A stretch of 64,000 nucleotides of DNA from assembly GCA_047602405.1 (NCBI GenBank), contig JASGHJ010000001.1:768001-832000 (forward strand). Reading direction: 5' to 3'. A program made the translations under genes and the position numbers. The stretch comes from Anaeromyxobacteraceae bacterium. GTDB lineage: Bacteria > Myxococcota > Myxococcia > Myxococcales > Anaeromyxobacteraceae. The notes under the pieces were generated by a model, which saw only the letters and a program-made list of their open reading frames with translations, had not been told where the DNA came from and ran no database searches. Below, one piece after another: positions 17,574 through 49,777 of this stretch; positions within the stretch are counted from its first letter, which is position 1; every line of letters starts with the position of its first letter.

Positions 17574-18584
17574 ATGCTCCACCTCTCCGGCCAGGACTCC
17601 CGAGCGCTCGCCCGCCTGGCGGGCATCAGCCTCGAGGACGCGCGCCGGATCACCGGCGCGGTGATCGGCCGGGGCGAGTCGCTGCGCCGGGCGCGCAACG
17701 TGCGCCGCGAGGTGCTCGACCACGTCGAGGCGCTCTCCGCGGGCGGAGAGCTCAAGGCCGTCGGCCACGTCGACGCGAAGGACGGGTTTCGGAAGTACCT
17801 GTTCGAGCTGCCCGACGGCGCGCGCGTCGAGTCGGTGCGGATCCCGCTCTTCGACACGCACCACGTCGTCTGCATCTCCTCGCAGGCGGGCTGCCCGCTC
17901 GCGTGCGCGTTCTGCGCGACCGGGAAGCTCGGCCTCGAGCGCAACCTCGCGTCCTGGGAGATCGTGCAGCAGGTCCTGCACGTGCGGCGGAACGCGGAGC
18001 GCCCGGTCACCGGCGTCGTGTTCATGGGCCAGGGCGAGCCGTTCCTCAACTACGAGGCGGTGCTCGACGCGGCCTACGCGCTCTGCGATCCGGCCGGCGC
18101 GCGCATCGACGCCCGGCGCATCTCGATCTCCACCGCGGGCATCGTCCCGGCCATCCGCCGCTACACCGCCGAGGGCCACAAGTTCCGGCTCTGCATCTCG
18201 CTCAACGCGGCGATCCCGTGGAAGCGCGAGGCGCTCATGCCCATCGAGCGGAAGTGGCCGCTCGACGCCCTCGTCGAGGCCGTGCGCGAGCACGCCGCCG
18301 CGACCGGCCGCGTGACGCTCGAGTACGTGATGATCGCGGGCGTGAACACCGGGCCCGAGGACGCGGCCGCGCTCGGGAGGCTCCTCGAGGGCATCCCGGT
18401 GCGGCTCAACCCGATCGCGGTCAACGACGCCTCGGGGCGCTTCAAGCCGCCCGATGAGACGGAGTGGAACCGCTTCCGCGACCTCCTCGGGCGCGCCCTG
18501 CCGGGCCAGCCCATCGTGCGGCGCTACTCGGGTGGCCAGGACGAGGCGGCGGCGTGCGGGATGCTCGCCTCCCGGTTGCGGTAG
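17574..18584 (+). CDS. RlmN/Cfr-family radical SAM RNA methyltransferase-like protein
   Basis: [46 protein letters not shown]. Confidence 0.88.
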
Positions 18585-18594
18585 CCGGAGCGCG

Positions 18595-18623
18595 TTGACA
18601 CGGACCGTCCCGGTCCTTAGTTC
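18595..18623 (+). promoter_or_regulatory. sigma70-type promoter with a palindrome in the spacer
   Basis: TTGACA-17 bp-TAGTTC; the spacer contains GGACCG-TCC-CGGTCC. Confidence 0.5.
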
Positions 18624-18630
18624 CAGCGGG

Positions 18631-19042
18631 GTGACGTCGGACCTCGCCGGCCTCCTCGCCCGCCACGGCATCCAGCCCTCCGCCCAGCGGATGGCCGTGG
18701 CCGCGTACGTGCTGGACACCGAGGATCACCCCTCGGCCGACCAGGTCTTCGCGAAGGTGAAGCGGAGCCACCCCTCGAATCTCGCGCGCGACCGTCTACA
18801 ACACCCTCAACCGGTTCGTGCGGGAGGGCATCCTCCGCACGCTCGTGCTTGCGGAGGGCCGGGTCGTCTTCGACCCGAACGTGAGCCCGCACCACCACTT
18901 CATCGACGAGGCGACCGGGCGCATCCACGACATCCCGTGGGACGCGCTCAGGGTCTCCCGCGTGGAGGCCCTCGAGGGCCTCGACGTCCGCGAGTACCAG
19001 GTGGTGCTGCGCGGGCGCCAGAAGCAGCACCGCAGGTCGTAG
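18631..19042 (+). CDS. Fur-family regulator, PerR/Irr-like (+1 frameshift near 18779)
   Basis: QRMAV...HPSADQVF...PS(I)SRATVYNTLNRF...FDPNVSPHHHFID; no CxxC zinc motifs; lies upstream of rubrerythrin. Confidence 0.9.
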
Positions 19043-19097
19043 GCGCGCTGTCCTGCCACGGCCCGATAAGGGTCGTGCTCGTTTCCGTTGCGAACGC

Positions 19098-19114
19098 TTT
19101 AGACAGTGTCTAAA
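19098..19114. promoter_or_regulatory. Fur-family operator upstream of rubrerythrin
   Basis: Perfect AT-rich palindrome TTTAGACA-G-TGTCTAAA overlapping TTGCGA(19088)-17 bp-TAAATC(19111). Confidence 0.8.
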
Positions 19115-19757: not shown

Positions 19758-20320
19758 ATGCGTCCCGTGAAGCGCGAAGAGATCCTCGACCTCGCCGCCT
19801 ACGAGAAGTCCCGCGAGGCCATCCGTCCGTCCATCCTCGACGCGAAGCGCCGCCGGCGCGTCCACGTCGGCGGCGTGCTGACGTTCCTCTTCGAGAACAC
19901 GGCGACCGTGCGCTACCAGGTGCAGGAGATGCTCCGGGCCGAGCGCATCCAGAAGGAGCCGGAGAATCGCGCACGAGATCGAGACGTACAACGAGCTCGT
20001 CGGCGGGAAGGGCGAGCTCGGCTGCTCGCTGCTCATCGAGATCACCGACCCCGAGGAGCGCGCGAAGAAGCTCGGGCAGTGGCTCGCGCTCCCGAAGCAC
20101 CTCTACGTGAAGACCGAGGACGGCGAGAAGCACCGCGCCCGCTTCGACGAGCGGCAGATCGGCACCGACCGGCTCTCGTCGGTGCAGTACCTCCGGTTCG
20201 ACGTGAAGGGTCGCCAGGCCCATCGCGGTCGGCAGCGACCTGCCCGGCCTCACCGCCGAGACGGCGCTCGACGGCGAGCAGCGCGAGGCGCTGCGGCAGG
20301 ACCTCGCGAGCGACGCCTAG
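19758..20320 (+). CDS. DUF3501 family protein (+1 frameshifts near 19966 and 20215)
   Basis: AYEKSR...KRRRRVHVG...[20 protein letters not shown]...(EIETYNEL)...[11 protein letters not shown]3501 is the usual partner of short rubrerythrins. Confidence 0.85.
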
Positions 20321-20424
20321 GCGGTCCGCTGAAGGATCACCGTCGATCCGCCGGAGCAGGACCGTCCGTACGCTGACGCAGTACGGCGTTGCGCCCGGCC
20401 CGCGCCCTCGGTTATCCCCGGAGC

Positions 20425-21918
20425 GTGAGCCCACCCTCGAGCCCCGCGCAGGCGCCCGGCGCCCGGCCCGACCCGTCCGCTCCGCCCGCCATCTCGCTCC
20501 TCGGCGCCGCCGTCCGGTACGGCGCCGTCACGGCGCTCGCGCCGCTCGACCTCGCGCTCCGCGCGGGCGAGCGCGTCGCGATCGTCGGGCCGAGCGGCGC
20601 GGGCAAGACCACCCTCCTCAAGCTCCTCAACACCACGCTCGCGCCCACCGAGGGCACCGTGGCAGTGCTGGGCGAGGAGCCGGCGCTGCTCTCCGCGCGG
20701 GCGCTCCGCCGGCTGCGCGCGCGCATCGGCACCGTCCACCAGCAGCTGCACCTCGTCCCGCAGGCGACCGTCTTCCAGAACGTGGTCGCCGGCCGGCTCG
20801 GGCGCGCGACGCTCGCCGGTGCGCTCGCGGCCCTGCTCTCGCGGCGCGAGGCCGCGGCGGTGCGCGCGCTGCTCGCCGAGGTCGGCATCCCGGAGAAGCT
20901 GCACGAGCGGCTCGACCGGCTCTCCGGCGGCGAGCAGCAGCGGGTCGCCATCGTCCGGACCCTGCACCAGGCGCCGGACCTCGTGCTCGCCGACGAGCCG
21001 CTCTCGGCGGTCGACCCCGAGCGCGCGAGCGAGCTCGCCGCGCTGCTGGCCCGCGCGTACGCGGGGCGCACGCTCGTGGTCTCCACGCACCGGATCGAGC
21101 CGCTGCTGCCCCACGTCGACCGCGTGATCGGCCTGCGCCGCGGGGAGCTCGCCTTCGATCTCCCGGCCGAGCGGGTGCGGCTCGCGGACCTGTCGCGCGT
21201 GTACCGCTCGGAGCGCGCGGAGGCAGGCCAGGCCTCCGGCCTGCGCGCCGCGCCGGGCGGGCCAGCGGCCGCGACCGTCGACGAGCCGGCCGGCCTCCTG
21301 ACGCTCGCGGCCTCGAGCACGCCGGCCGAGACCGTCGTCCCGCCCGCGCTGCGCCGCTTCGTGCGGCTCTACCCCGGCGTCCGGCTGCACCTCGTGCAGG
21401 GCGGCTCCGCGGCGGTCGAGGCAGCCGTGCGGGAGGGCCGGGCGGAGCTCGGCTTCGTCGGCGCCCGGCCCCTCGCCGACGGGCTCGAGCAGACGCTCGT
21501 GGCCGACGACGAGATCGTCGCGGTGGCCGCGCCGGCGCTCGACCTCGGCCCCCTGCCGCTCGCGCTCGAGGACCTCGCCCGGGTCCCCCGCGTGGAGCGC
21601 GAGGCGGGGTCCGGCACCCGCGCCGTGCTCGAGGACCACCTCCGCGGGCTCGGCGTGACGCTGCCGCCGGCGGTGCTCGAGGCGGAGGGGCTCGCGGCCC
21701 TGCGCGCCGCCGCGATCTCCGGCGTCGGGCTCGCGTTCGTCTCGCGCCGCGCGGTGGCGGACGACCTCGCGACCGGGCTGCTCCGGGTGGTGCCGGTCGC
21801 CGGGCTCGAGATCCCGCGGCACGTGTTCGCAATCCACCGGCCGGCGCCCTCGCCGTCGGCCCGGGCGTTCCTCGAGGTCGCGCGCGCCTGCGCCGGTGCG
21901 CCGGGGGCCGGCGGGTGA
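20425..21918 (+). CDS. PhnC-like ABC ATPase fused to a LysR substrate-binding domain
   Basis: GPSGAGKTT, LSGGEQQRVAI, LADEP and STH, followed in frame by GLLTLAASSTP...FVRLYPGVRL...REAGSGTR...GVGLAFVSRRAV (LysR effector domain). No HTH. Confidence 0.9.
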   Translation: MSPPSSPAQAPGARPDPSAPPAISLLGAAVRYGAVTALAPLDLALRAGERVAIVGPSGAGKTTLLKLLNTTLAPTEGTVAVLGEEPALLSARALRRLRARIGTVHQQLHLVPQATVFQNVVAGRLGRATLAGALAALLSRREAAAVRALLAEVGIPEKLHERLDRLSGGEQQRVAIVRTLHQAPDLVLADEPLSAVDPERASELAALLARAYAGRTLVVSTHRIEPLLPHVDRVIGLRRGELAFDLPAERVRLADLSRVYRSERAEAGQASGLRAAPGGPAAATVDEPAGLLTLAASSTPAETVVPPALRRFVRLYPGVRLHLVQGGSAAVEAAVREGRAELGFVGARPLADGLEQTLVADDEIVAVAAPALDLGPLPLALEDLARVPRVEREAGSGTRAVLEDHLRGLGVTLPPAVLEAEGLAALRAAAISGVGLAFVSRRAVADDLATGLLRVVPVAGLEIPRHVFAIHRPAPSPSARAFLEVARACAGAPGAGG

Positions 21919-23594
21919 AGCGCCCGTCCGTGCCTCGACGGGCCGGGGACGATCGGGCCGCTCGCCCGCCCCTCCCCGCCTTCCTCCGCTGGCCCGCGCT
22001 CGTAGGGATGGCCGTCGTGGCCGTCGCCTGGCGGGTGGTCGACGGCGACCTCGCCCTCCTCGTCTCGAAGGACGCGCGCGGCGCCATGGCCGACTTCGCG
22101 CGCGGCTTCTGGCCGCCCGCCCACGACGCCGGGCTGCTCGCCCTGCTCGCCCGGCCGCTCGTCGAGACGCTCGCGATCGCGTTCCTCGGCATGACGGTCG
22201 CGCTCGCCCTCGCGCTGCCGCTGTCGATGCTCGCCGCCGATCCCGCGCTGCTCGTCGCGGGCGGGGAGCGCCCCTCGGCCGCGCGCCGGGCGGCGTGGAT
22301 GGCCGCGCGCGGGCTCCTCAACCTGATGCGGTCGATCCCGGAGATCGTCTGGGCGCTCGTCTTCGTGCGCGCGGTCGGGATGGGTCCGACCGCCGGCGTG
22401 CTCGCGATCGGCATCGGCTACGGCGGCATCGTCGGGAAGGTGTTCGCCGAGACCTTCGAGTCGACGCCGCGCGGCCCGTCCCGCGCGCTCGCCGCCGCCG
22501 GGGCGCGGCCCGCGGGGGCGTTCCTCTTCGGCGTGCTGCCCGGCGCGCTGCCGCTCCTCTCCTCCTACACGCTCTACCGGCTCGACTGCGCGCTGCGCGC
22601 CTCCGCGGTGCTCGGGCTCGTCGGCGCGGGCGGCATCGGGCTGCAGCTCGAGCTCTCGATCAAGATGTTCGCGTGGGACGAGGTCGCCGCGATGGTGCTC
22701 GGCCTCTTCGGGCTCGTGGCCGCGCTCGACCTCGCCTCGCGCCGCCTGCGCCGGCGCATCCACGCGAGCCGGGGGTTCCTGCCCGCGGGCCGGCGCGGCG
22801 CGGCCGTGCGGCTCGCGATCCCGGTCGCCTGGCTCTCCCTGGCGGCGGGCGCGGTCGCGTTCCTCCGGCTGCCGCTCGGCGAGCTCTTCTCGCTGGAGAC
22901 GCCGCGGAGCGCGTGGGCGTTCGTCGCCTCCACCTGGCCGCCTGACGTGTCGCCCGCCTTCCTGCGCCAGCTCGGCCCCGCCGTGCTCGAGACGCTCGCG
23001 GTGAGTGTCGTGGGGATCGCGATCGCCGTCGCGCTGGGGCTCCCGCTCGCGCTCCTCGCGGCGCGCCGCGGGCCCTCGGCGGCGCTCGCGCGCGTGCTCC
23101 TCGCGCTCGGGCGGACGCTGCCGGAGCTCCTGTGGGCGCTGCTCGTGATCTTCGCGGTGGGCCTGGGACCCTTCGCCGGCGCCCTCGCGCTCGGCCTGCA
23201 CACCGCCGGCGTGCTGGGCCGGCTCCACGCCGAGGCGCTCGAGGAGGTGCCGCAGGCGCCGGTGCTCGCGCTCCGGGCCATGGGCGCGCCCGCGCTCTCC
23301 GCCGAGGCGTTCGCCGCCTGGCCGCAGGCGTTCCCGCAGCTCGCCGCGTACACGCTCTACCGCTGGGAGGTCGCCATCCGCGCGTCCGCGGTGCTGGGCG
23401 TCGTCGGCGCGGGCGGGCTCGGGCAGCTCCTCCACGTGTCGCTGTCCCTCTTCCACCACCACCGCACCGCGACGCTCGTGCTCGCGATCGTGTTGCTCGT
23501 GACCGCGGTGGACCTCTTCTCCGGCTGGCTGCGCGCGCGGATCCTCGCGGGCCGGCCGCTCGTCGCCGCGGCGGCGACGCTGGAGGCGGCGTGA
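21915..23594 (+). CDS. PhnE/PtxC-type ABC permease with two tandem permease domains
   Basis: Two copies of ETLA...R(S/T)(I/L)PE(I/L)xWAL...G(M/L)GPxAG...YTLYRxxxAxRASAVLGxVGAGGxG; GTGA overlap with the ATPase stop. Confidence 0.92.
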   Translation: MKRPSVPRRAGDDRAARPPLPAFLRWPALVGMAVVAVAWRVVDGDLALLVSKDARGAMADFARGFWPPAHDAGLLALLARPLVETLAIAFLGMTVALALALPLSMLAADPALLVAGGERPSAARRAAWMAARGLLNLMRSIPEIVWALVFVRAVGMGPTAGVLAIGIGYGGIVGKVFAETFESTPRGPSRALAAAGARPAGAFLFGVLPGALPLLSSYTLYRLDCALRASAVLGLVGAGGIGLQLELSIKMFAWDEVAAMVLGLFGLVAALDLASRRLRRRIHASRGFLPAGRRGAAVRLAIPVAWLSLAAGAVAFLRLPLGELFSLETPRSAWAFVASTWPPDVSPAFLRQLGPAVLETLAVSVVGIAIAVALGLPLALLAARRGPSAALARVLLALGRTLPELLWALLVIFAVGLGPFAGALALGLHTAGVLGRLHAEALEEVPQAPVLALRAMGAPALSAEAFAAWPQAFPQLAAYTLYRWEVAIRASAVLGVVGAGGLGQLLHVSLSLFHHHRTATLVLAIVLLVTAVDLFSGWLRARILAGRPLVAAAATLEAA

Positions 23595-23623
23595 ACCCTG
23601 GCGTGCGAAGGGAGGTGAGGCGC

Positions 23624-23662
23624 GTGATCGACATCGAACGGCGCGTCCCGCTCGACCGGTGA
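23624..23662 (+). CDS. Putative leader peptide MIDIERRVPLDR-UGA (possible Sec readthrough)
   Basis: SD GGAGG(T) at 23611-23616, with GGAGG ending 8 nt before the GTG. An in-frame GTG at 23591 overlaps the permease stop. The UGA is followed by a hairpin. Confidence 0.45.
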   Translation: MIDIERRVPLDR

Positions 23663-23692
23663 GGCCGCGAGGCCCGGGCGAGTTCGCCCGCC
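23663..23692 (+). promoter_or_regulatory. SECIS-like stem-loop after the uORF UGA
   Basis: CGGGCG-AGTT-CGCCCG stem-loop whose apical loop begins about 18-19 nt after the UGA and contains GU. Confidence 0.35.
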
Positions 23693-23708
23693 ACTCTTCC
23701 TCTACATC

Positions 23709-23758
23709 CCGTTCGCCCCGAGCGTAGCAGCCGCGAAGCGGCTGCGGAGACGAGGGGC
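23709..23758. repeat. REP-like palindromic element
   Basis: CCGTTCGCCCCGAGCGTAG-CAGCCGC-GAA-GCGGCTG-CGGAGACGAGGGGC. Confidence 0.85.
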
Positions 23759-23789
23759 CCGAGCCGTCACCTTGGCCACAGGAAACGCC

Positions 23790-24650
23790 ATGTCCTTCCG
23801 CACCACCTCCGCCCTCACCCTCCTCGCAGTCCTCTCCCTCACCTCCCCGGCCCGCAGTGCGGCCCAGGAGCTCCGGGTGAGCGCCATCCCCGACGAGGCG
23901 CCCACCGAGCTCGTGCGCAAGTTCGCGCCGCTCGGCGCCTACCTCGAGAAGCAGCTCGGCATGAAGGTCTCCTTCGTGCCGGTCTCCGACTACGCCGCCA
24001 CCGTGGAGGGCCTCGCCGCCGGCAAGCTCGACATGGTCTGGTACGGCGGCTTCACCTTCGTCCAGGCGCGCCGCCGCACCGGCAACGCCGTGCCGCTCGT
24101 GCAGCGCGAGGAGGACGCGCACTTCCACTCCAAGTTCATCGTGCCCGCCTCCTCGAAGGCGCAAACCCTCGCCGACCTCAAGGGCGCGAACTTCGCGTTC
24201 GGCTCGGTGAGCTCGACCTCCGGCCACCTCATGCCGCGGCACTTCCTGCTCCAGGCCGGCATCGACCCCGAGAAGGACTTCTCGAAGGTCGCCTTCTCCG
24301 GCGCGCACGACGTGACCGCGAAGTGGGTCGAGGCCGGGAAGGTGGACGCCGGCGCGCTCAACGAGTCGGTGTTCAAGAAGCTCGTCGACGAGGGCAAGCT
24401 CGACATGACGAAGATCCGGGTGCTGTGGACCACGCCGGATTACCAGGACTACAACTGGACCGTCCGCGGCGACCTCGACCCGAAGCTCCAGGCGAAGCTC
24501 AAGGACGCCTTCCTCGCGCTCGACCCCAAGAACCCCGAGCAGAAGGCGATCCTCGATCTGCAGCGGGCGTCCAAGTTCATCCCGACGTCGCCCGCGAACT
24601 ACACCAGCATCGAGGCCGCCGCGAAGTCGGCGGGGCTGATCAAGGACTGA
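23790..24650 (+). CDS. PhnD-type ABC substrate-binding protein, resembling the putative selenate-binding subfamily
   Basis: Signal peptide; SAIPDE...FVPVSDYAATVE...DMVWYGGFTFVQAR, FAFGSVSSTSGHLMPR, FSGAHD, GALNESV, YQDYNWT. The subfamily call is from memory of the motif pattern. Confidence 0.88.
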   Translation: MSFRTTSALTLLAVLSLTSPARSAAQELRVSAIPDEAPTELVRKFAPLGAYLEKQLGMKVSFVPVSDYAATVEGLAAGKLDMVWYGGFTFVQARRRTGNAVPLVQREEDAHFHSKFIVPASSKAQTLADLKGANFAFGSVSSTSGHLMPRHFLLQAGIDPEKDFSKVAFSGAHDVTAKWVEAGKVDAGALNESVFKKLVDEGKLDMTKIRVLWTTPDYQDYNWTVRGDLDPKLQAKLKDAFLALDPKNPEQKAILDLQRASKFIPTSPANYTSIEAAAKSAGLIKD

Positions 24651-24713
24651 GGGGCGGGCTGTAGTGCGCCGACGGCGATGTCGAGGTCGGTCGCAGGCCG
24701 GCGGTTTCCCTCT

Positions 24714-30039: not shown

Positions 30040-31101
30040 TTATCCGGCGAGGTGCAGGGCCGCCCGGGTCGCGAGGAAGACGAGGGCCGCGGCGATGGCG
30101 GACGCCGGAATCGTGAAGATCCACGCCCAGATGATGCGCCCAGCCACCCCCCACTGCACCGCCCGGGAGCCCCGGGTCGCCCCGACCCCGACGATGGCGC
30201 CGGTGATGGTGTGGGTGGTCGAGACCGGGATGCCCCAGTGCGCGAGGGCGAGGATGGTCACGCCGCCGCCGGTCTCGGCGCAGAAGCCGCCGATGGGCTG
30301 CAGCTTCGTCAGGTTGTGGCCCATCGTCTTCACAATGCGCCAGCCGCCGAAGAGCGTGCCGAGGCCGATCGCCGCGTGGCACGAGAGCACCACCCAGAAC
30401 GGCACCGGGAACTTCGCCGCCACGTCGGCGGTGGAGACCTGGTTCGACCAGATCGTGCCGTAGAGGATGAGGCTGATGATGCCCATGACCTTCTGGGCGT
30501 CGTTCGTGCCGTGGCTGTAGCTGAAGATCGCGGCCGAGAGGAGCTGCAGCCGGCGGAACCAGATGTCGACGGCGGCGGTGCGCGCGTGGCGCACCACCCA
30601 CGCCGTCGCGACCATCATCGACGAGCCGAGCACGAAGCCGATCACCGGCGACAGCACGATGAACGAGACGATCTTGAGGATGCCGGACGGGATGAGCGCG
30701 CCCACCCCGAGCGCCGGGATGGTGGCGCCGACGATGCCGCCCGCGAGGGCGTGCGAGGACGAGGACGGCAGGCCCCACCACCAGGTGAGGAGGTTCCAGA
30801 TGATGGCGCCGAGGAGCGCGGAGAAGATGACCGTCAGGACGAGCGGGACGCCGAGCGCCCGCAGCATCTCGAAGTGGACGATGCCCTTGCCCATGGTCGC
30901 GGCGACCTTGAGCTCGGCGCCCCACAGCACCGGCGCCGCGGAGATGAAGTTCCAGAACGCCGCCCAGACCACCGCCGCGAGCGGCGTGAGCACCCGGGTC
31001 GAGACCACCGTGGCGATCGAGTTCGCGGCGTCGTGGAAGCCGTTGATGAAGTCGAACGCGAGCGCGACGATGATGAGGAGGACGACGGCGGCGACGAGCA
31101 T
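30040..31101 (-). CDS. pit: Inorganic phosphate transporter (PiT family)
   Basis: NGFHDAANSIAT, GLPSSSSHA, HGTNDAQK, PVSTTH. Confidence 0.95.
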   Translation of the reverse strand: MLVAAVVLLIIVALAFDFINGFHDAANSIATVVSTRVLTPLAAVVWAAFWNFISAAPVLWGAELKVAATMGKGIVHFEMLRALGVPLVLTVIFSALLGAIIWNLLTWWWGLPSSSSHALAGGIVGATIPALGVGALIPSGILKIVSFIVLSPVIGFVLGSSMMVATAWVVRHARTAAVDIWFRRLQLLSAAIFSYSHGTNDAQKVMGIISLILYGTIWSNQVSTADVAAKFPVPFWVVLSCHAAIGLGTLFGGWRIVKTMGHNLTKLQPIGGFCAETGGGVTILALAHWGIPVSTTHTITGAIVGVGATRGSRAVQWGVAGRIIWAWIFTIPASAIAAALVFLATRAALHLAG

Positions 31102-31116
31102 GGCGGGAGGTGCGCC

Positions 31117-31752
31117 CTAGCCCTGGCTGAGGACCAGGCCCTCGATGACGTTTGCGACGTCCTCGGCCCGGTCGGTGGCGCCCTCGATCAGGTCGATGAT
31201 CTCCTTCCACATCATGACGGTGAGGGGATCGTTGGCCTTGCGGAAGAGCTTCGCCATCGTGCGGCGGGTGAGCGAGTCGGCCTGGTTCTCGAGGACGTTG
31301 ATCTCGCGGCAGGCGTCGAGCACCGCGTCGGGGTTCTTCTTGAGGTCGCGCAGGTGGTGCACGGCCTCGTGCATCTTCTCGGCCTGGGCGACGAGCACCG
31401 CGGAGAGCTCGCGGGCCTCGGGCAGGATCGAGTCGATCTCGTAGAGCGCCAGGCGGCCGGCGGCGCCGTCGGCGAGGTCGATCACGTCGTCGATGCGCGA
31501 CAGCAGCCGGTGGATCTCGGCGCGGTCGAAGGGCGTGATGAACTGGGAGTGGAGCCGGGCGAACGCGCGGTGGGTGACGTCGTCCGAGCGGTGCTCGACC
31601 TCCTTGATGGCCTGCACCTTCTTCTGGACGTCGGTGAAGTCCTCCAGGAGGTCGCGGAACAGCTTCGTCCCCTCGACCACGCAGGCGGCCTGGGCCTCGA
31701 AGTCCGAGAAGAAATCGTCGGCCCGCGGCATCAGCTTTTCGAACAGTCCCAT
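31117..31752 (-). CDS. DUF47 phosphate-transport regulator (Pit accessory)
   Basis: EHRSD, FITPFDRAEI, ENQAD, TDRAEDVAN; directly upstream of pit. Confidence 0.92.
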   Translation of the reverse strand: MGLFEKLMPRADDFFSDFEAQAACVVEGTKLFRDLLEDFTDVQKKVQAIKEVEHRSDDVTHRAFARLHSQFITPFDRAEIHRLLSRIDDVIDLADGAAGRLALYEIDSILPEARELSAVLVAQAEKMHEAVHHLRDLKKNPDAVLDACREINVLENQADSLTRRTMAKLFRKANDPLTVMMWKEIIDLIEGATDRAEDVANVIEGLVLSQG

Positions 31753-32017
31753 CGGTCTCCTCCCGGCGCGGGCGCACCATACCCCGTGGGACTCCATTCG
31801 CAAACGGGTTGTGTCGGGCGGGTGCCGTGGGTCCGGGCGGGGCTCCGGAAACGCCCATGGGGCGCACGGTTCCGTGCGGAACGACCCGTGCCGAGGGTAG
31901 GCGCGCGGGGGGTGCATGTGAACCTTGTCGCTGGCCCGAGGGAGCCCCGGCGTTCAGGGCCCCGCGGCGCTCCCTCCGTCCCCCCGGACGGACCGTTCAC
32001 CCTGTCGTGAGGAGCGG

Positions 32018-48958: not shown

Positions 48959-49031
48959 GAACCATCACGGGTGGCCGGGGAGCCGACCCGGCTGACGTGC
49001 GCGCCAGTATGATAGTTGTTATACTTGGGCC

Positions 49032-49346
49032 GTGACCGCCAAGTCCGAACCCTCCCGCCACATCTCGACGATGGACCTCCGCGCCCGCCTCGGTGACGTC
49101 CTCGACCGGGTGCGGCTCCGCTTCGATACCTTCGTCGTCGAGCGCAAGGGCGAGGAGATCGCCGCGATCGTGCCGGTCGAGCGTATGCGCCGGCTGGAGG
49201 AGTTCGCGCGGCGCCGGGCCGACGAGCTGGAGGCCCATCAGCGCGAGGCCGCCGGCGAGGCCAGCGAGCAGGACGTCGAGCAGCAGCTTCGGGAGTCGCT
49301 GGCGGACGTCCGCGCTGAGCGGGCCCGCAAGGGCAAGCGCCGGTGA
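49032..49346 (+). CDS. Phd/YefM-family antitoxin
   Basis: ISTMDLRARLGDVLDRV...FVVERKGEEIAAIVP; overlaps the PIN gene. Confidence 0.85.
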   Translation: MTAKSEPSRHISTMDLRARLGDVLDRVRLRFDTFVVERKGEEIAAIVPVERMRRLEEFARRRADELEAHQREAAGEASEQDVEQQLRESLADVRAERARKGKRR

Positions 49347-49777
49347 GGCCCTGGCGGGTGGTGCTGGACACGATGGTCTGGCTCAGCGCCGCGGTGAACC
49401 CGCTCGGCGCGCCAGGCGAGATCGTCCGGCTCGCCCGCTCCGGCGCCTTCCGGATCGTGACCTCCTCGGCCATCCACGAGGAGATCGCCGACGTGCTCAC
49501 CCGCCCCGGGAACCGGCGGCTGTTCCACCCGCACTTCGACGCGGCCGAATGGCTCGACCTGGTGGAGTTCGCCGCCGCGGACGTCATCGAGGACACGCTC
49601 GGGCCGCGCGTCTCTGTGGATCCCAAGGACGACATGTTCTGCTGGGCGGCGTACACCGGCGCCGCCACGCACATCGTCTCGAAGGACCCCGACCTCCGGA
49701 ACCTGAAGCACTACCGGGGCGCCCAGGTGCTCGAGCCTCGCGCCTTCCTCGAGGCGTTCCGGGCGCGGCTCGCCTGA
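49343..49777 (+). CDS. PIN-domain toxin
   Basis: VVLDT, EEIADVL, DPKDD, IVSKDPDL acidic PIN residues. Confidence 0.9.
   Translation: MRPWRVVLDTMVWLSAAVNPLGAPGEIVRLARSGAFRIVTSSAIHEEIADVLTRPGNRRLFHPHFDAAEWLDLVEFAAADVIEDTLGPRVSVDPKDDMFCWAAYTGAATHIVSKDPDLRNLKHYRGAQVLEPRAFLEAFRARLA

Follow-up and report, generated by a model that had tools for sequence, protein, structure and literature searches.

The window, a 64,000-nucleotide stretch of an Anaeromyxobacteraceae genome (GCA_047602405.1, contig JASGHJ010000001.1, positions 768,001 to 832,000), carries an operon on its forward strand. An ABC ATPase fused to a LysR-type effector domain is followed by a tandem permease, a short leader ORF with two hairpins, and a substrate-binding protein (SBP):

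20425..21918, + strand: ABC ATPase (PhnC-like) with a C-terminal LysR-type effector domain (Pfam ABC_tran and LysR_substrate)
21915..23594, + strand: tandem (double, fused) PhnE-type permease (TIGR01097)
23610..23618, + strand: Shine-Dalgarno-like GGGAGGTGA serving the leader ORF (read from the sequence and the leader alignment)
23624..23662, + strand: leader ORF of 12 codons, M-I-D-I-E-R-R-V-P-L-D-R, with a TGA stop (conservation)
23663..23674, + strand: hairpin 1, GGCC-GCGA-GGCC, starting straight after the stop codon (fold)
23675..23690, + strand: hairpin 2, CGGGCG-AGUU-CGCCCG (fold and covariation)
23691..23730, + strand: C-rich, G-poor tract 3' of hairpin 2 (18 C and 7 G in 40 nt)
23790..24650, + strand: periplasmic SBP, a member of TIGR04553 (366.1 bits)

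By gene content and family memberships, the operon is a PhnCDE-type ABC importer. The parts named by the first-pass annotation (ATPase-LysR fusion, tandem PhnE, upstream ORF and PhnD-type SBP) all lie where it had placed them, on the + strand. Its remark that the window lacks a C-P lyase gene also holds: a Pfam scan of the 43 window ORFs detects neither this nor any other gene of phosphonate breakdown, and across the host genome PhnJ/C-P lyase has no match, phosphonatase yields nothing above cut-off, and a second PhnD-family SBP is not found. No selenium gene adjoins the operon within the window. The host genome carries tRNA-Sec and selB, and at the GAG-U-ACK site of its SelD the codon is a TGA in frame.

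The ABC architecture and Pfam families are common to this operon and E. coli PhnCDE, and the permease passes the PhnE equivalog (428.9 bits on TIGR01097, in two stretches); its GTG start and the stop of the ATPase gene share the letters GTGA. In contrast to E. coli PhnCDE, the SBP and the ATPase (187 bits on TIGR02315) remain below the PhnD and PhnC equivalog cut-offs, and the C-P lyase genes are missing from the host genome.

Binding protein family and its selenium neighbourhood

The SBP reaches 366.1 bits on TIGR04553 (cut-off 250), an NCBIfam model of the hypothetical-equivalog type named 'putative selenate ABC transporter substrate-binding protein', and fails the PhnD equivalog TIGR03431 at 193.1 bits (cut-off 261.1). 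This HMM comparison, proposed by the first-pass annotation, agrees with the likeness to the putative selenate-binding family that it had seen in three motifs, AIPDE, WYGGFTFVQAR and STSGHLMPR, all of them present. The protein is 100% identical to database protein P0001 (286 aa), a TTG at 23772 could also serve as its start, and NCBI gives its relatives the same 'putative selenate' name. No measured substrate for the TIGR04553 family, including binding or transport of a selenium compound, was found in the literature searched.

The closest PDB entries, 7s6g (218 bits) and 5lq5 (178 bits), are the PhnD1 proteins of Synechococcus and Prochlorococcus. Picocyanobacterial PhnD1 (7S6G/7ZCK, 5LQ5/5LQ8) has ~50% identity to the SBP over the mature protein, and every ligand-contact residue read from the alignment (Y44, S124-T125-S126, H156, D203, Y204, T65, D11 and N174) is kept. 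The ligands measured for PhnD1 are phosphorus compounds: the portion of the report consulted gives a Kd of 0.67-2.8 uM for phosphite and 7.4-88 uM for phosphate, with methylphosphonate also bound (PMC10284923). PhnD1 operons differ from the present one in gene order and lack both fusion and leader. Database protein P0178, near 7s6g (345.9 bits), reaches 344.5 bits on TIGR04553, which suggests that the PhnD1 clade may sit within the 'selenate' family.

Of 80 related loci, 26 have selD no more than 9 kb away, mostly in Pseudomonas and also in Burkholderiales, Rhodocyclaceae, Cupriavidus and Microbulbifer; in one myxobacterial genome (G324) it follows the SBP gene at a distance of 124 nt. The co-occurrence profile with selD, likewise suggested at first pass, reveals an association in a sample of 301 gammaproteobacterial genomes from the GTDB class holding Pseudomonas, eight of which carry the SBP above cut-off. 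Here selD is present in 8/8 carriers against 47/292 non-carriers (7/7 without the chosen centre) and in 0/4 genomes with near-miss SBPs (216-240 bits), counts that treat related genomes rather than independent samples. In Myxococcota, where the same reading applies, the contrast (44/45 carriers, 257/356 non-carriers) is weak because selD is so common there (301/401). In a passage of a further report, ABC_peri_selen and PhnE are each co-localised with 3.1% of thio/seleno-imidazole synthase genes, together with senB and senC (PMC13674229).

The locus shares with its TIGR04553 relatives an SBP above cut-off, adjoining partner genes, a selenium-using genome and, in other phyla, a selD neighbourhood. 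It differs from them in the LysR domain on the ATPase, the fused permease halves and the leader ORF before the SBP gene; fusion and leader are absent from all 74 proteobacterial loci examined.

The LysR-type domain of the ATPase

In the 509-aa TTG form of the fusion, Pfam places ABC_tran at residues 52-205 and LysR_substrate at residues 299-499, and its scan finds no HTH. The GTG at 20425 yields 497 aa, the same length as the 97%-identical database protein P0121. Twenty database clusters share this two-domain build of ABC ATPase and LysR effector, and the fusion was detected in Myxococcota only. The selenium hint that the first-pass annotation drew from the LysR subtype is weak: LysR_Sec_metab is indeed the best NCBIfam match of the domain alone, but its 107.9 bits lie far below the cut-off of 250. 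In another genome (G281), a full-length LysR adjoining the SBP gene passes this model at 255.5 bits.

The closest solved relatives of the fused domain are YeiE regulatory domains (PDB 7ERP, 7FDF, 8SBH), and 6/8 sulfite-contact residues are retained in the window's domain. The YeiE domain is reported to bind sulfite with a Kd of 1.38 uM, in the part of the source consulted (PMC8931317). S96, S127, R191, S195 and T197 of YeiE are retained across the fused domains. The window's domain also has S97, which is mostly Asn among the other fused forms. In contrast to YeiE, the HTH is lacking, N126 is Gly or Asp, and the sulfite-versus-sulfate selector E145 is replaced by Gly, with a new Arg two residues further on. 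The motif GFVGAR occurs in 18 of 21 aligned fused forms (the window and P0121-P0140), against GF[VI]E[GS] in 9/9 free LysR relatives (GFVEG in eight). With E145 and N126 replaced and an Arg gained, the ligand of the fused domain is expected to be a different oxyanion from that of YeiE.

Regulatory C-terminal domains are known on the ABC importer ATPases MetN (C2), ModC and MalK, where they are associated with trans-inhibition. The window's ATPase likewise bears an extra ligand-binding domain after the nucleotide-binding domain, placed for sensing the cytoplasm; its fold differs, being of the LysR/periplasmic-binding-protein type-2 kind, which the literature consulted did not describe for an ABC ATPase. 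As in MetN and ModC, the fused domain, which retains most oxyanion-binding residues of YeiE, would bind a cytoplasmic oxyanion and thereby inhibit the pump from inside.

The leader and the genes behind it

The upstream ORF, MIDIERRVPLDR-TGA at 23624-23662, stands behind GGGAGGTGA and is followed by the two hairpins. The leader has 30 matches (E<=7.4e-5) in 25 of 92 Anaeromyxobacteraceae genomes; it occurs in 0/141 other Myxococcota genomes and at 0 of the proteobacterial loci examined, and is wholly absent from five closely related SBP loci (L007, L011, L025, L026 and L036). GGAGGTGA is retained in most of 29 leaders. Across 28 leaders, codons I4 (26/28), E5 (25/28), R7 (27/28), P9 (28/28) and L10 (27/28) are conserved, with variation clustering at third codon positions, a coding-type pattern. 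Because of this conservation the ORF, which the first-pass annotation had proposed and which has its own Shine-Dalgarno-like site, is more than a chance reading frame.

The hairpin-1 helix is 92.9% paired across the 28 leaders and the hairpin-2 helix 99.4%, the latter with both-sided changes in 5/6 pairs. In the tract that follows, possibly a Rho loading site, C exceeds G in 22/29 leaders (mean skew 0.20, against 0.00 with sd 0.18 in random genome windows). Fold energies are not exceptional (z of -0.72 over the full spacer and of -1.03 over the hairpin region), and no terminator-like site was found at the leader.

TGA ends 24/29 leaders and UAG 5/29, while TGA accounts for ~59% of stops in a crude gene set of the host genome. 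The UAG leaders include 4/6 of the yedE subgroup, in which the stop falls within the hairpin-1 loop, 6-9 nt before hairpin 2; one leader copy has CGA where TGA is expected. By hand count in the window, with the U of UGA as the first position, G-U of the hairpin-2 loop occupies positions 23-24, the geometry of E. coli fdhF. None of the Rfam SECIS families gives a match with the threshold relaxed to E<=10, and in the host's selD the hairpin that follows the TGA carries another loop, CCU. The ORF in the UGA/SECIS-like leader proposed at first pass is real and conserved; with UAG in five copies and no Rfam SECIS match, ORF and hairpins are, judged by sequence, more aptly called a leader-peptide element than an established SECIS.

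Leader peptides control tnaC, where the nascent peptide stalls at its own stop codon and blocks Rho, and attenuators of the trp/his type. The leader seen here resembles these systems in its short translated ORF preceded by a Shine-Dalgarno site, in the invariant Pro close to a stop codon that is usually UGA, and in the C-rich tract just 3'. The present leader differs in its unrelated peptide, two covarying hairpins at the stop, no terminator found, and selenium-linked genes. Whether the downstream gene is expressed would depend on ribosomes that pause or terminate at the stop of the leader.

The downstream genes, identified for 29 of the 30 matches, are SBP (6), yedE of the TIGR04112 type (7), YedE/FdhT (1), yedF-like (1), tusA-dsrE-tusA/metE (13) and a double-cubane reductase (1). 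Three curated selenium models (TIGR04112, NF033796 and TIGR03527) have members among the partner genes of the leader. TusA and DsrE are classic sulfur-relay proteins; in genome G188, tusA-dsrE-metE and the ATPase and permease of the transporter form one gene row headed by the leader.

Substrate and control of the importer

The PhnCDE-type importer probably takes up a selenium oxyanion, with a predicted dual throttle of fused LysR domain and leader. An importer of phosphite or phosphate (or methylphosphonate) like picocyanobacterial PhnD1CE, with the 'selenate' family name a mislabel, is unlikely. In its favour are the best PDB matches, to PhnD1, which binds phosphite, then phosphate, then methylphosphonate, the contact residues retained throughout, the TIGR04553 score of P0178 and the PhnE equivalog passed by the permease. 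However, the SBP fails the PhnD equivalog, its family adjoins and co-occurs with selD, and the leader is common to yedE and yedF genes; the host lacks C-P lyase and any phosphonatase above cut-off, and the window already has, at 30040-31953, a phosphate carrier of the PiT type together with a PhoU-like gene. According to the part of the PhnD1 report consulted, PhnD1 strains do not grow on phosphite or methylphosphonate and expression ignores phosphate, and the stem 'selen' occurs 0 times in its main text (PMC10284923). Highly improbable is a system for a sulfur oxyanion (sulfite or thiosulfate), with a sulfur-relay rather than a selenium regulon: although tusA-like and dsrE-like genes follow 13/29 leaders and the sulfite sensor YeiE is nearest to the fused domain, the SBP family adjoins and co-occurs with selD, leader partners pass the three selenium models, and the sulfite-selecting E145 is replaced.

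The leader might instead sense selenocysteine, its UGA being read by Sec-tRNA/SelB with hairpin 2 as SECIS, or SelB merely binding hairpin 2, as it binds the hairpin of the E. coli selAB leader, so that uptake genes would follow Sec-insertion capacity. The share of TGA stops relative to the host gene set, the fdhF-like loop spacing in the window, and the host's selB, tRNA-Sec and Sec-containing SelD speak for this sensor, yet it is rather doubtful given the five UAG stops, with those of the yedE subgroup inside the hairpin-1 loop, the CGA copy, the missing Rfam match and the different selD loop; moreover, the strongly conserved R-x-P-L peptide would be superfluous. A constitutive role without a selenium signal, in which the hairpins serve mRNA stability or processing, or coupled translation boosts SBP output, is quite unlikely. 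In ABC operons the binding protein is often required in excess over the membrane components, and the ordinary fold energies and lack of a terminator-like site fit such a role, but peptide motif and hairpins precede six gene sets, nearly all of selenium/sulfur trafficking, the peptide sequence is under selection, and the element is absent from the five closely related SBP loci.

For the preferred selenium-oxyanion importer, the substrate is likely selenite or selenate, judged from sequence relationships, with selenite the more likely of the two. Of the doubly regulated selenium-oxyanion importer put forward by the first-pass annotation, the transporter's selenium link stands, through TIGR04553, selD neighbourhood and co-occurrence, and the leader common to yedE/yedF; the substrate is inferred, as is each of the two regulatory layers. 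In conclusion, the imported oxyanion would feed selenophosphate synthesis, and the leader, common to SBP, yedE, yedF-like and tusA-dsrE-tusA/metE genes, is likely the mark of a single selenium-acquisition regulon in Anaeromyxobacteraceae, predicted to tune selenium-uptake genes to selenium supply.

The operon and the family of its binding protein

The ABC operon consists of four coupled reading frames, in which the start of the permease gene overlaps the stop of the ATPase gene as GTGA. The parts described in the first-pass annotation, namely an ATPase-LysR fusion, a tandem PhnE permease, a small upstream ORF (uORF) and a PhnD-type substrate-binding protein (SBP), are all confirmed.

Features of the operon, in window coordinates
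20425-21918, + strand: ABC ATPase with a LysR effector-binding domain, lacking a helix-turn-helix (Pfam ABC_tran, LysR_substrate)
21915-23594, + strand: fused double PhnE permease (TIGR01097, two stretches)
23624-23662, + strand: 12-codon ORF behind GGGAGGTGA (sequence reading)
23790-24650, + strand: PhnD-fold binding protein, the SBP (TIGR04553)

The permease passes the PhnE equivalog model TIGR01097 in two stretches, as a fused tandem (428.9 bits, cut-off 216.7). The ATPase stays below the cut-off of the PhnC equivalog model TIGR02315 (187 bits vs 266.1), yet this model is its best ATPase match. The window has a G+C content of about 74%, and its closest protein relatives bear the name Anaeromyxobacter. 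Among the Pfam matches of the window ORFs, a Fur-like gene, rubrerythrin and DUF3501 lie upstream of the operon, and unknowns lie downstream, followed by a PiT phosphate carrier and a PhoU-like gene at 30040-31953. This PiT-type transporter (PHO4, 308 bits), with its PhoU_div/DUF47 partner on the minus strand, is located 5.4 kb downstream of the operon, giving the cell a separate route for phosphate encoded close by. In the Fur-family gene (18454-19113), the N-terminal part and the Pfam FUR match apparently occupy different frames; in the DUF3501 gene (19758-20320), the first frame matches profile positions 2-66 only and the continuation is found in other frames. These mid-gene frame changes may be assembly indels or mark pseudogenes. 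The window also carries a Phd/YefM antitoxin and PIN-domain toxin pair at 48996-49777, and no tRNA genes.

The transporter belongs to a family that is known and named in databases but uncharacterised. As the first-pass annotation anticipated, the SBP matches the putative selenate transporter model TIGR04553 over its full length (positions 2-266 of 266) with 366.1 bits against a cut-off of 250, and it falls short of the PhnD phosphonate equivalog TIGR03431 (193.1 bits, cut-off 261.1). NCBI has already given the selenate name to Anaeromyxobacter proteins 80-83% identical to the SBP, so the label is not new. The SBP is the sole PhnD-family protein found in the host genome, where selD, whose active-site position is an in-frame TGA, occurs along with tRNA-Sec and selB. 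A Pfam scan of the 43 window ORFs reveals no gene of phosphonate or phosphite catabolism; in the host genome, PhnJ of the C-P lyase has no match and the best phosphonatase match reaches 45.9 bits against a cut-off of 220.

The selenium link of the family is backed by neighbourhood and co-occurrence counts. A profile-guided scan with one genome per species yielded 80 SBP loci, most of them in Pseudomonas, Aeromonas and Betaproteobacteria; their SBPs are 62-80% identical. In 26 of these 80 loci the flanks, of up to 9 kb, contain selD, often adjoining the SBP gene, and in the myxobacterial genome G324 it starts 124 nt past the SBP gene. The proposed association with selD is also seen across genomes. 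In a sample of 301 genomes from the class containing Pseudomonas (one left unscored), selD occurs in 8/8 carriers of an SBP over the cut-off (7/7 without the chosen centre genome) vs 47/292 non-carriers, and the genomes of four SBPs just below the cut-off (216-240 bits) all lack it. Among Myxococcota, in tallies that take in genome G196, the figures are 44/45 carriers, the exception being a genome 81% complete, vs 257/356 non-carriers, a weak test because selD is common in this phylum. Related genomes are not independent, and p-values are accordingly omitted. In one study, ABC_peri_selen and PhnE each appear in 3.1% of the neighbourhoods of thio/seleno-imidazole clusters, beside senB and senC (PMC13674229). 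A 2022 review describes the prokaryotic high-affinity selenium transporter as not yet identified (PMC9312934), and literature searches, judged from their results, returned no paper characterising the TIGR04553 SBPs.

Variant forms accompany the family. A second SBP subgroup (loci L021, L022, L023 and L028), right at the TIGR04553 cut-off with 250-264 bits, has MIPTTDP in place of AIPDE and GALDE in place of GALNE, so that two residues capping the pocket in PhnD1, the picocyanobacterial phosphite/phosphate-binding protein, differ; the genes of this subgroup are arranged as SBP, ATPase, permease. Fused SBP forms exist, since the 50%-identity representatives include a 561-aa protein with two SBP-like stretches and a 641-aa protein with the SBP at 363-641 (P0150 and P0151). 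In several gammaproteobacterial carriers (G594:C38, G700:C2, G651, G726), the selD match (profile positions 5-310) is embedded in an open frame of 755-905 aa, which points to a fusion of SelD with a further domain; G594 has this match 4 kb from the SBP gene.

Ligand of the binding protein

The best solved relatives of the SBP are the PhnD1 proteins of Synechococcus MITS9220 (7s6g, 218 bits, about 50% identity) and Prochlorococcus (5lq5). PhnD1 binds phosphite with a Kd of 0.67-2.8 µM, phosphate with 7.4-88 µM and methylphosphonate more weakly, through Y44, S124-T125-S126, H156, D203 and Y204, together with T65, S123, D11 and N174 (PMC10284923). Every one of these contact residues is conserved in the window SBP, as read by eye from the 7s6g alignment. 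The equality of the pocket residues with those of a phosphite/phosphate binder speaks for phosphite or phosphate as the ligand of the window transporter, a reading held to be unlikely. According to the same source, strains with PhnD1 do not grow on phosphite or methylphosphonate and its expression ignores phosphate; the stem 'selen' is absent from the main text of the paper (PMC10284923).

P0178, a database protein matching 7s6g with 345.9 bits, was used as a proxy for the PDB PhnD1 sequences in TIGR04553 scoring; its 90% cluster is labelled as an Actinomycetota MAG, so P0178 itself is not cyanobacterial. Because it scores 344.5 bits on TIGR04553, the PhnD1 clade may belong inside this family. 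Selenite is a trigonal-pyramidal oxyanion, like phosphite, and for this reason we infer it to be a likelier cargo than selenate. One of these two selenium oxyanions is probably the ligand of the window transporter. By extension, selenite could be the true ligand of the marine PhnD1 proteins described as 'phosphite' binders. Selenite binding by PhnD1, if true, could resolve the paradox of abundant ocean proteins that bind phosphite their hosts cannot use.

A leader shared with other genes

The 12-codon uORF, followed by hairpin 1 and hairpin 2, forms a leader ahead of the SBP gene. When the spacers ahead of this gene are compared, some members of the genus keep the uORF and other close loci lack it; an exact-pattern search finds it ahead of the SBP gene in 6/16 sampled genus genomes, with near-identical copies at other places. 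One copy, in genome G192, precedes YedE (TIGR04112, 361 bits), and further copies stand ahead of the gene for a YedF-like protein (TIGR03527, 119.9 bits, cut-off 110) and of a set of tusA-like, dsrE-like and TusA/MetE-like genes. A first covariance model, built from nine copies, gives 30 matches at E<=7.4e-5 in 25/92 Anaeromyxobacteraceae genomes. A second model matches in 5/151 Myxococcota genomes, all of them Anaeromyxobacteraceae (genome G000 and 4/9), and in 0/141 Myxococcota genomes of other families; none of the proteobacterial SBP loci has the leader. Downstream genes were identified for 29 of the 30 matches, leaving out G225:C50; three of the yedE copies and two of the tusA sets were confirmed with a family scan and the others assigned with tblastn. 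The host genome has one leader copy and no YedE.

Genes downstream of the leader, with number of copies
SBP gene: 6
TIGR04112-type yedE: 7
YedE/FdhT (NF033796, 562 bits): 1
yedF-like: 1
tusA-dsrE-tusA/metE: 13
Double-cubane reductase: 1

Several of these clusters have features of their own. In locus L034 (G188:C139, 8774-13485, - strand), the leader, a tusA-like gene, a dsrE-like gene, a TusA/MetE-like fusion, a PhnC-like ATPase and a tandem PhnE stand in one row, by which sulfur-relay-like genes are physically linked to the transporter; here the ATPase has no LysR domain and the SBP gene is convergent. The fusion of a TusA-like part with a part resembling cobalamin-independent methionine synthase (Meth_synt_2) recurs in leader-controlled clusters (L146, 165-1700, - strand; L157, 2094-3098, + strand), and no curated family names this protein. 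The double-cubane-cluster anaerobic reductase behind the leader in L163 (G231:C239, 103-1596, - strand; NF040772, 457 bits) is alone among the partners in having no obvious link to selenium or sulfur. A truncated leader with the Shine-Dalgarno sequence, start and peptide core and with the hairpins missing lies beside an apparent tRNA gene in L182 (G075:C30, 379-465); a rearrangement may have left it behind.

In 28 distinct leaders, the encoded peptide follows the consensus x-x-x-I-E-(S/R)-R-(S/V/A)-P-L-(D/E/Q)-x, with I4 retained in 26/28, E5 in 25/28, R7 in 27/28, P9 in 28/28 and L10 in 27/28. Over codons 4-11, the entropies add up to 4.07 at the first codon position, 3.71 at the second and 7.13 at the third, the signature of translated sequence. 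Pairing in the two hairpins reaches 96.7%, with changes on both sides in 9/10 pairs, in an alignment that was fitted to the model; an unfitted nine-sequence alignment gives 96.6% pairing and 3 double-change pairs. The stems of hairpin 2 alternate between a GGGGCG/CGCCCC type and a GGAAGCC/GGCUUCC type. Fold energies of the spacer and hairpins are not unusual at this GC content (z -0.72, -1.03, -1.82 and -1.58), and the structural claim therefore rests on covariation, not energy. A third hairpin, GCAGCCGC-GAA-GCGGCUGC, is located at 23727-23745, 45 nt ahead of the SBP start; compared with the closest relative G195 alone, it is retained with compensating changes (GCGGCCGC-AAA-GCGGCCGC).

Three candidate marks were set aside. 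The bare motif GGCGAGTTCGCC has 10 occurrences in the genome, mostly within genes, and is therefore not diagnostic by itself. The 24-nt uORF pattern with 1-2 mismatches gives many chance matches in coding sequence, and exact or near-exact matches alone were used. Pairing of UCGAGCG in the uORF with CGCUCGA was dropped, as a synonymous CTC-to-CTG change breaks it in three copies.

For what the leader senses, a mechanism based on ribosome position is favoured, which would give a role to the conserved R-x-P-L peptide and to the hairpins close to the stop. The first-pass annotation had proposed a UGA/SECIS-like element, and sensing through SelB and Sec-tRNA is the corresponding alternative. The window copy agrees with that proposal, in that hairpin 2 (loop AGUU), counted by hand from the U of UGA, carries G23-U24 and fits the geometry. 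The stop is TGA in 24/29 copies vs about 59% of the stops in a crude gene set of the host genome. Speaking against SECIS, and thus for the ribosome-position mechanism, are the five TAG copies of 29 (four of them in a six-member yedE subgroup, whose leaders place the stop inside the hairpin-1 loop), the single CGA copy and the hairpin after the host selD UGA, which looks different. Rfam gives no match at gathering thresholds across the whole window, and at E<=10 over 20200-24700 it gives four chance-level matches, with no SECIS or riboswitch among them. Another alternative, a metabolite acting on the nascent chain in a tnaC-like manner and possibly with Rho, would go with the retention of P9 and R7 near the stop and with tracts just downstream of hairpin 2 in which C exceeds G in 22/29 copies. 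The leader may also carry no selenium signal at all. Set beside trp/his-type attenuators, it has a uORF with a Shine-Dalgarno sequence and coding-type conservation, and neither a terminator-like site nor an established alternative pairing was found; at 75% GC, the promoter and terminator consensus scan behind this comparison, which found nothing, is uninformative. Literature searches, judged from their results, returned no selenium-linked leader or riboswitch.

The LysR-type domain of the ATPase and the overall reading

The domain fused to the C-terminus of the ATPase matches NF040786 (LysR_Sec_metab) best among LysR models, with 107.9 bits over profile positions 87-294 only, below the cut-off of 250; YeiE is second with 85.7. 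In the database it is closest to 20 clusters of proteins of about 500 aa with the same two Pfam domains and 46-97% identity, and full-length LysR regulators rank after them at 34-44%. The N-terminal helix-turn-helix (PF00126) is absent from all 20 fused clusters, and in the window protein LysR_substrate alone follows the ABC domain (Pfam). Among the loci examined, a LysR-domain match after the ATPase match occurs in Myxococcota only, in 7/16 fetched myxobacterial loci and 3/80 scan loci (all three Anaeromyxobacter-like MAGs), and in none of the proteobacterial loci. Separate full-length regulators also appear: in L027 (G281:C1, 6660-9750), one passing LysR_Sec_metab (255.5 bits) is beside and convergent to the SBP gene, and a gene of about 1.3 kb between the permease and SBP genes encodes a product that by eye is porin-like and outer-membrane. 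For L183, the top full-length LysR in the host, the guessed reading frame has no family match.

The closest solved structures to the fused domain are YeiE regulatory domains. YeiE binds sulfite with a Kd of 1.38 µM through S96, S97, N126, S127, E145, R191, S195 and T197, with E145 keeping sulfate out (PMC8931317). Fused domains retain S96, S127, R191, S195 and T197; S97 is kept in the window and is mostly Asn in other fused forms. N126 is replaced by Gly or Asp, and E145 by Gly with an Arg two residues on. The resulting GFVGAR is found in 18/21 aligned fused forms, in contrast to GF[VI]E[GS] in 9/9 free LysR relatives (GFVEG in 8). From these substitutions, the domain looks like a retuned oxyanion pocket. 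It would sense the cargo or a product in the cytoplasm and then inhibit the pump. The C-terminal domains of MetN and ModC, which inhibit their pumps, offer a comparison. The papers searched, on other questions, describe no ABC ATPase with a LysR-fold sensor attached.

In conclusion, a tentative and rather doubtful reading is that of an Anaeromyxobacteraceae selenium-acquisition regulon under one ribosome-read leader, with a pump that senses its own cargo through the LysR-fold domain grafted on its ATPase. Its members would be the ABC importer, two kinds of YedE, YedF and the TusA-DsrE-TusA/MetE-like set. The leader, a peptide of 12-15 codons (x-x-I-E-S/R-R-x-P-L-D/E/Q) with its stop against covarying hairpins of SECIS-like geometry, would report selenium status via SelB/Sec-tRNA or via a selenium metabolite on the nascent chain. 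What is new is the ATPase-LysR fusion and the shared leader, the latter being the most interesting part. The locus provides a concrete candidate for a high-affinity selenium transporter, with two predicted control devices, in the cultivable genus Anaeromyxobacter. Its leader joins four separately predicted families of selenium uptake or trafficking and, if it responds to selenium, would amount to a naturally occurring cis-regulator that senses selenium, usable directly as a reporter.
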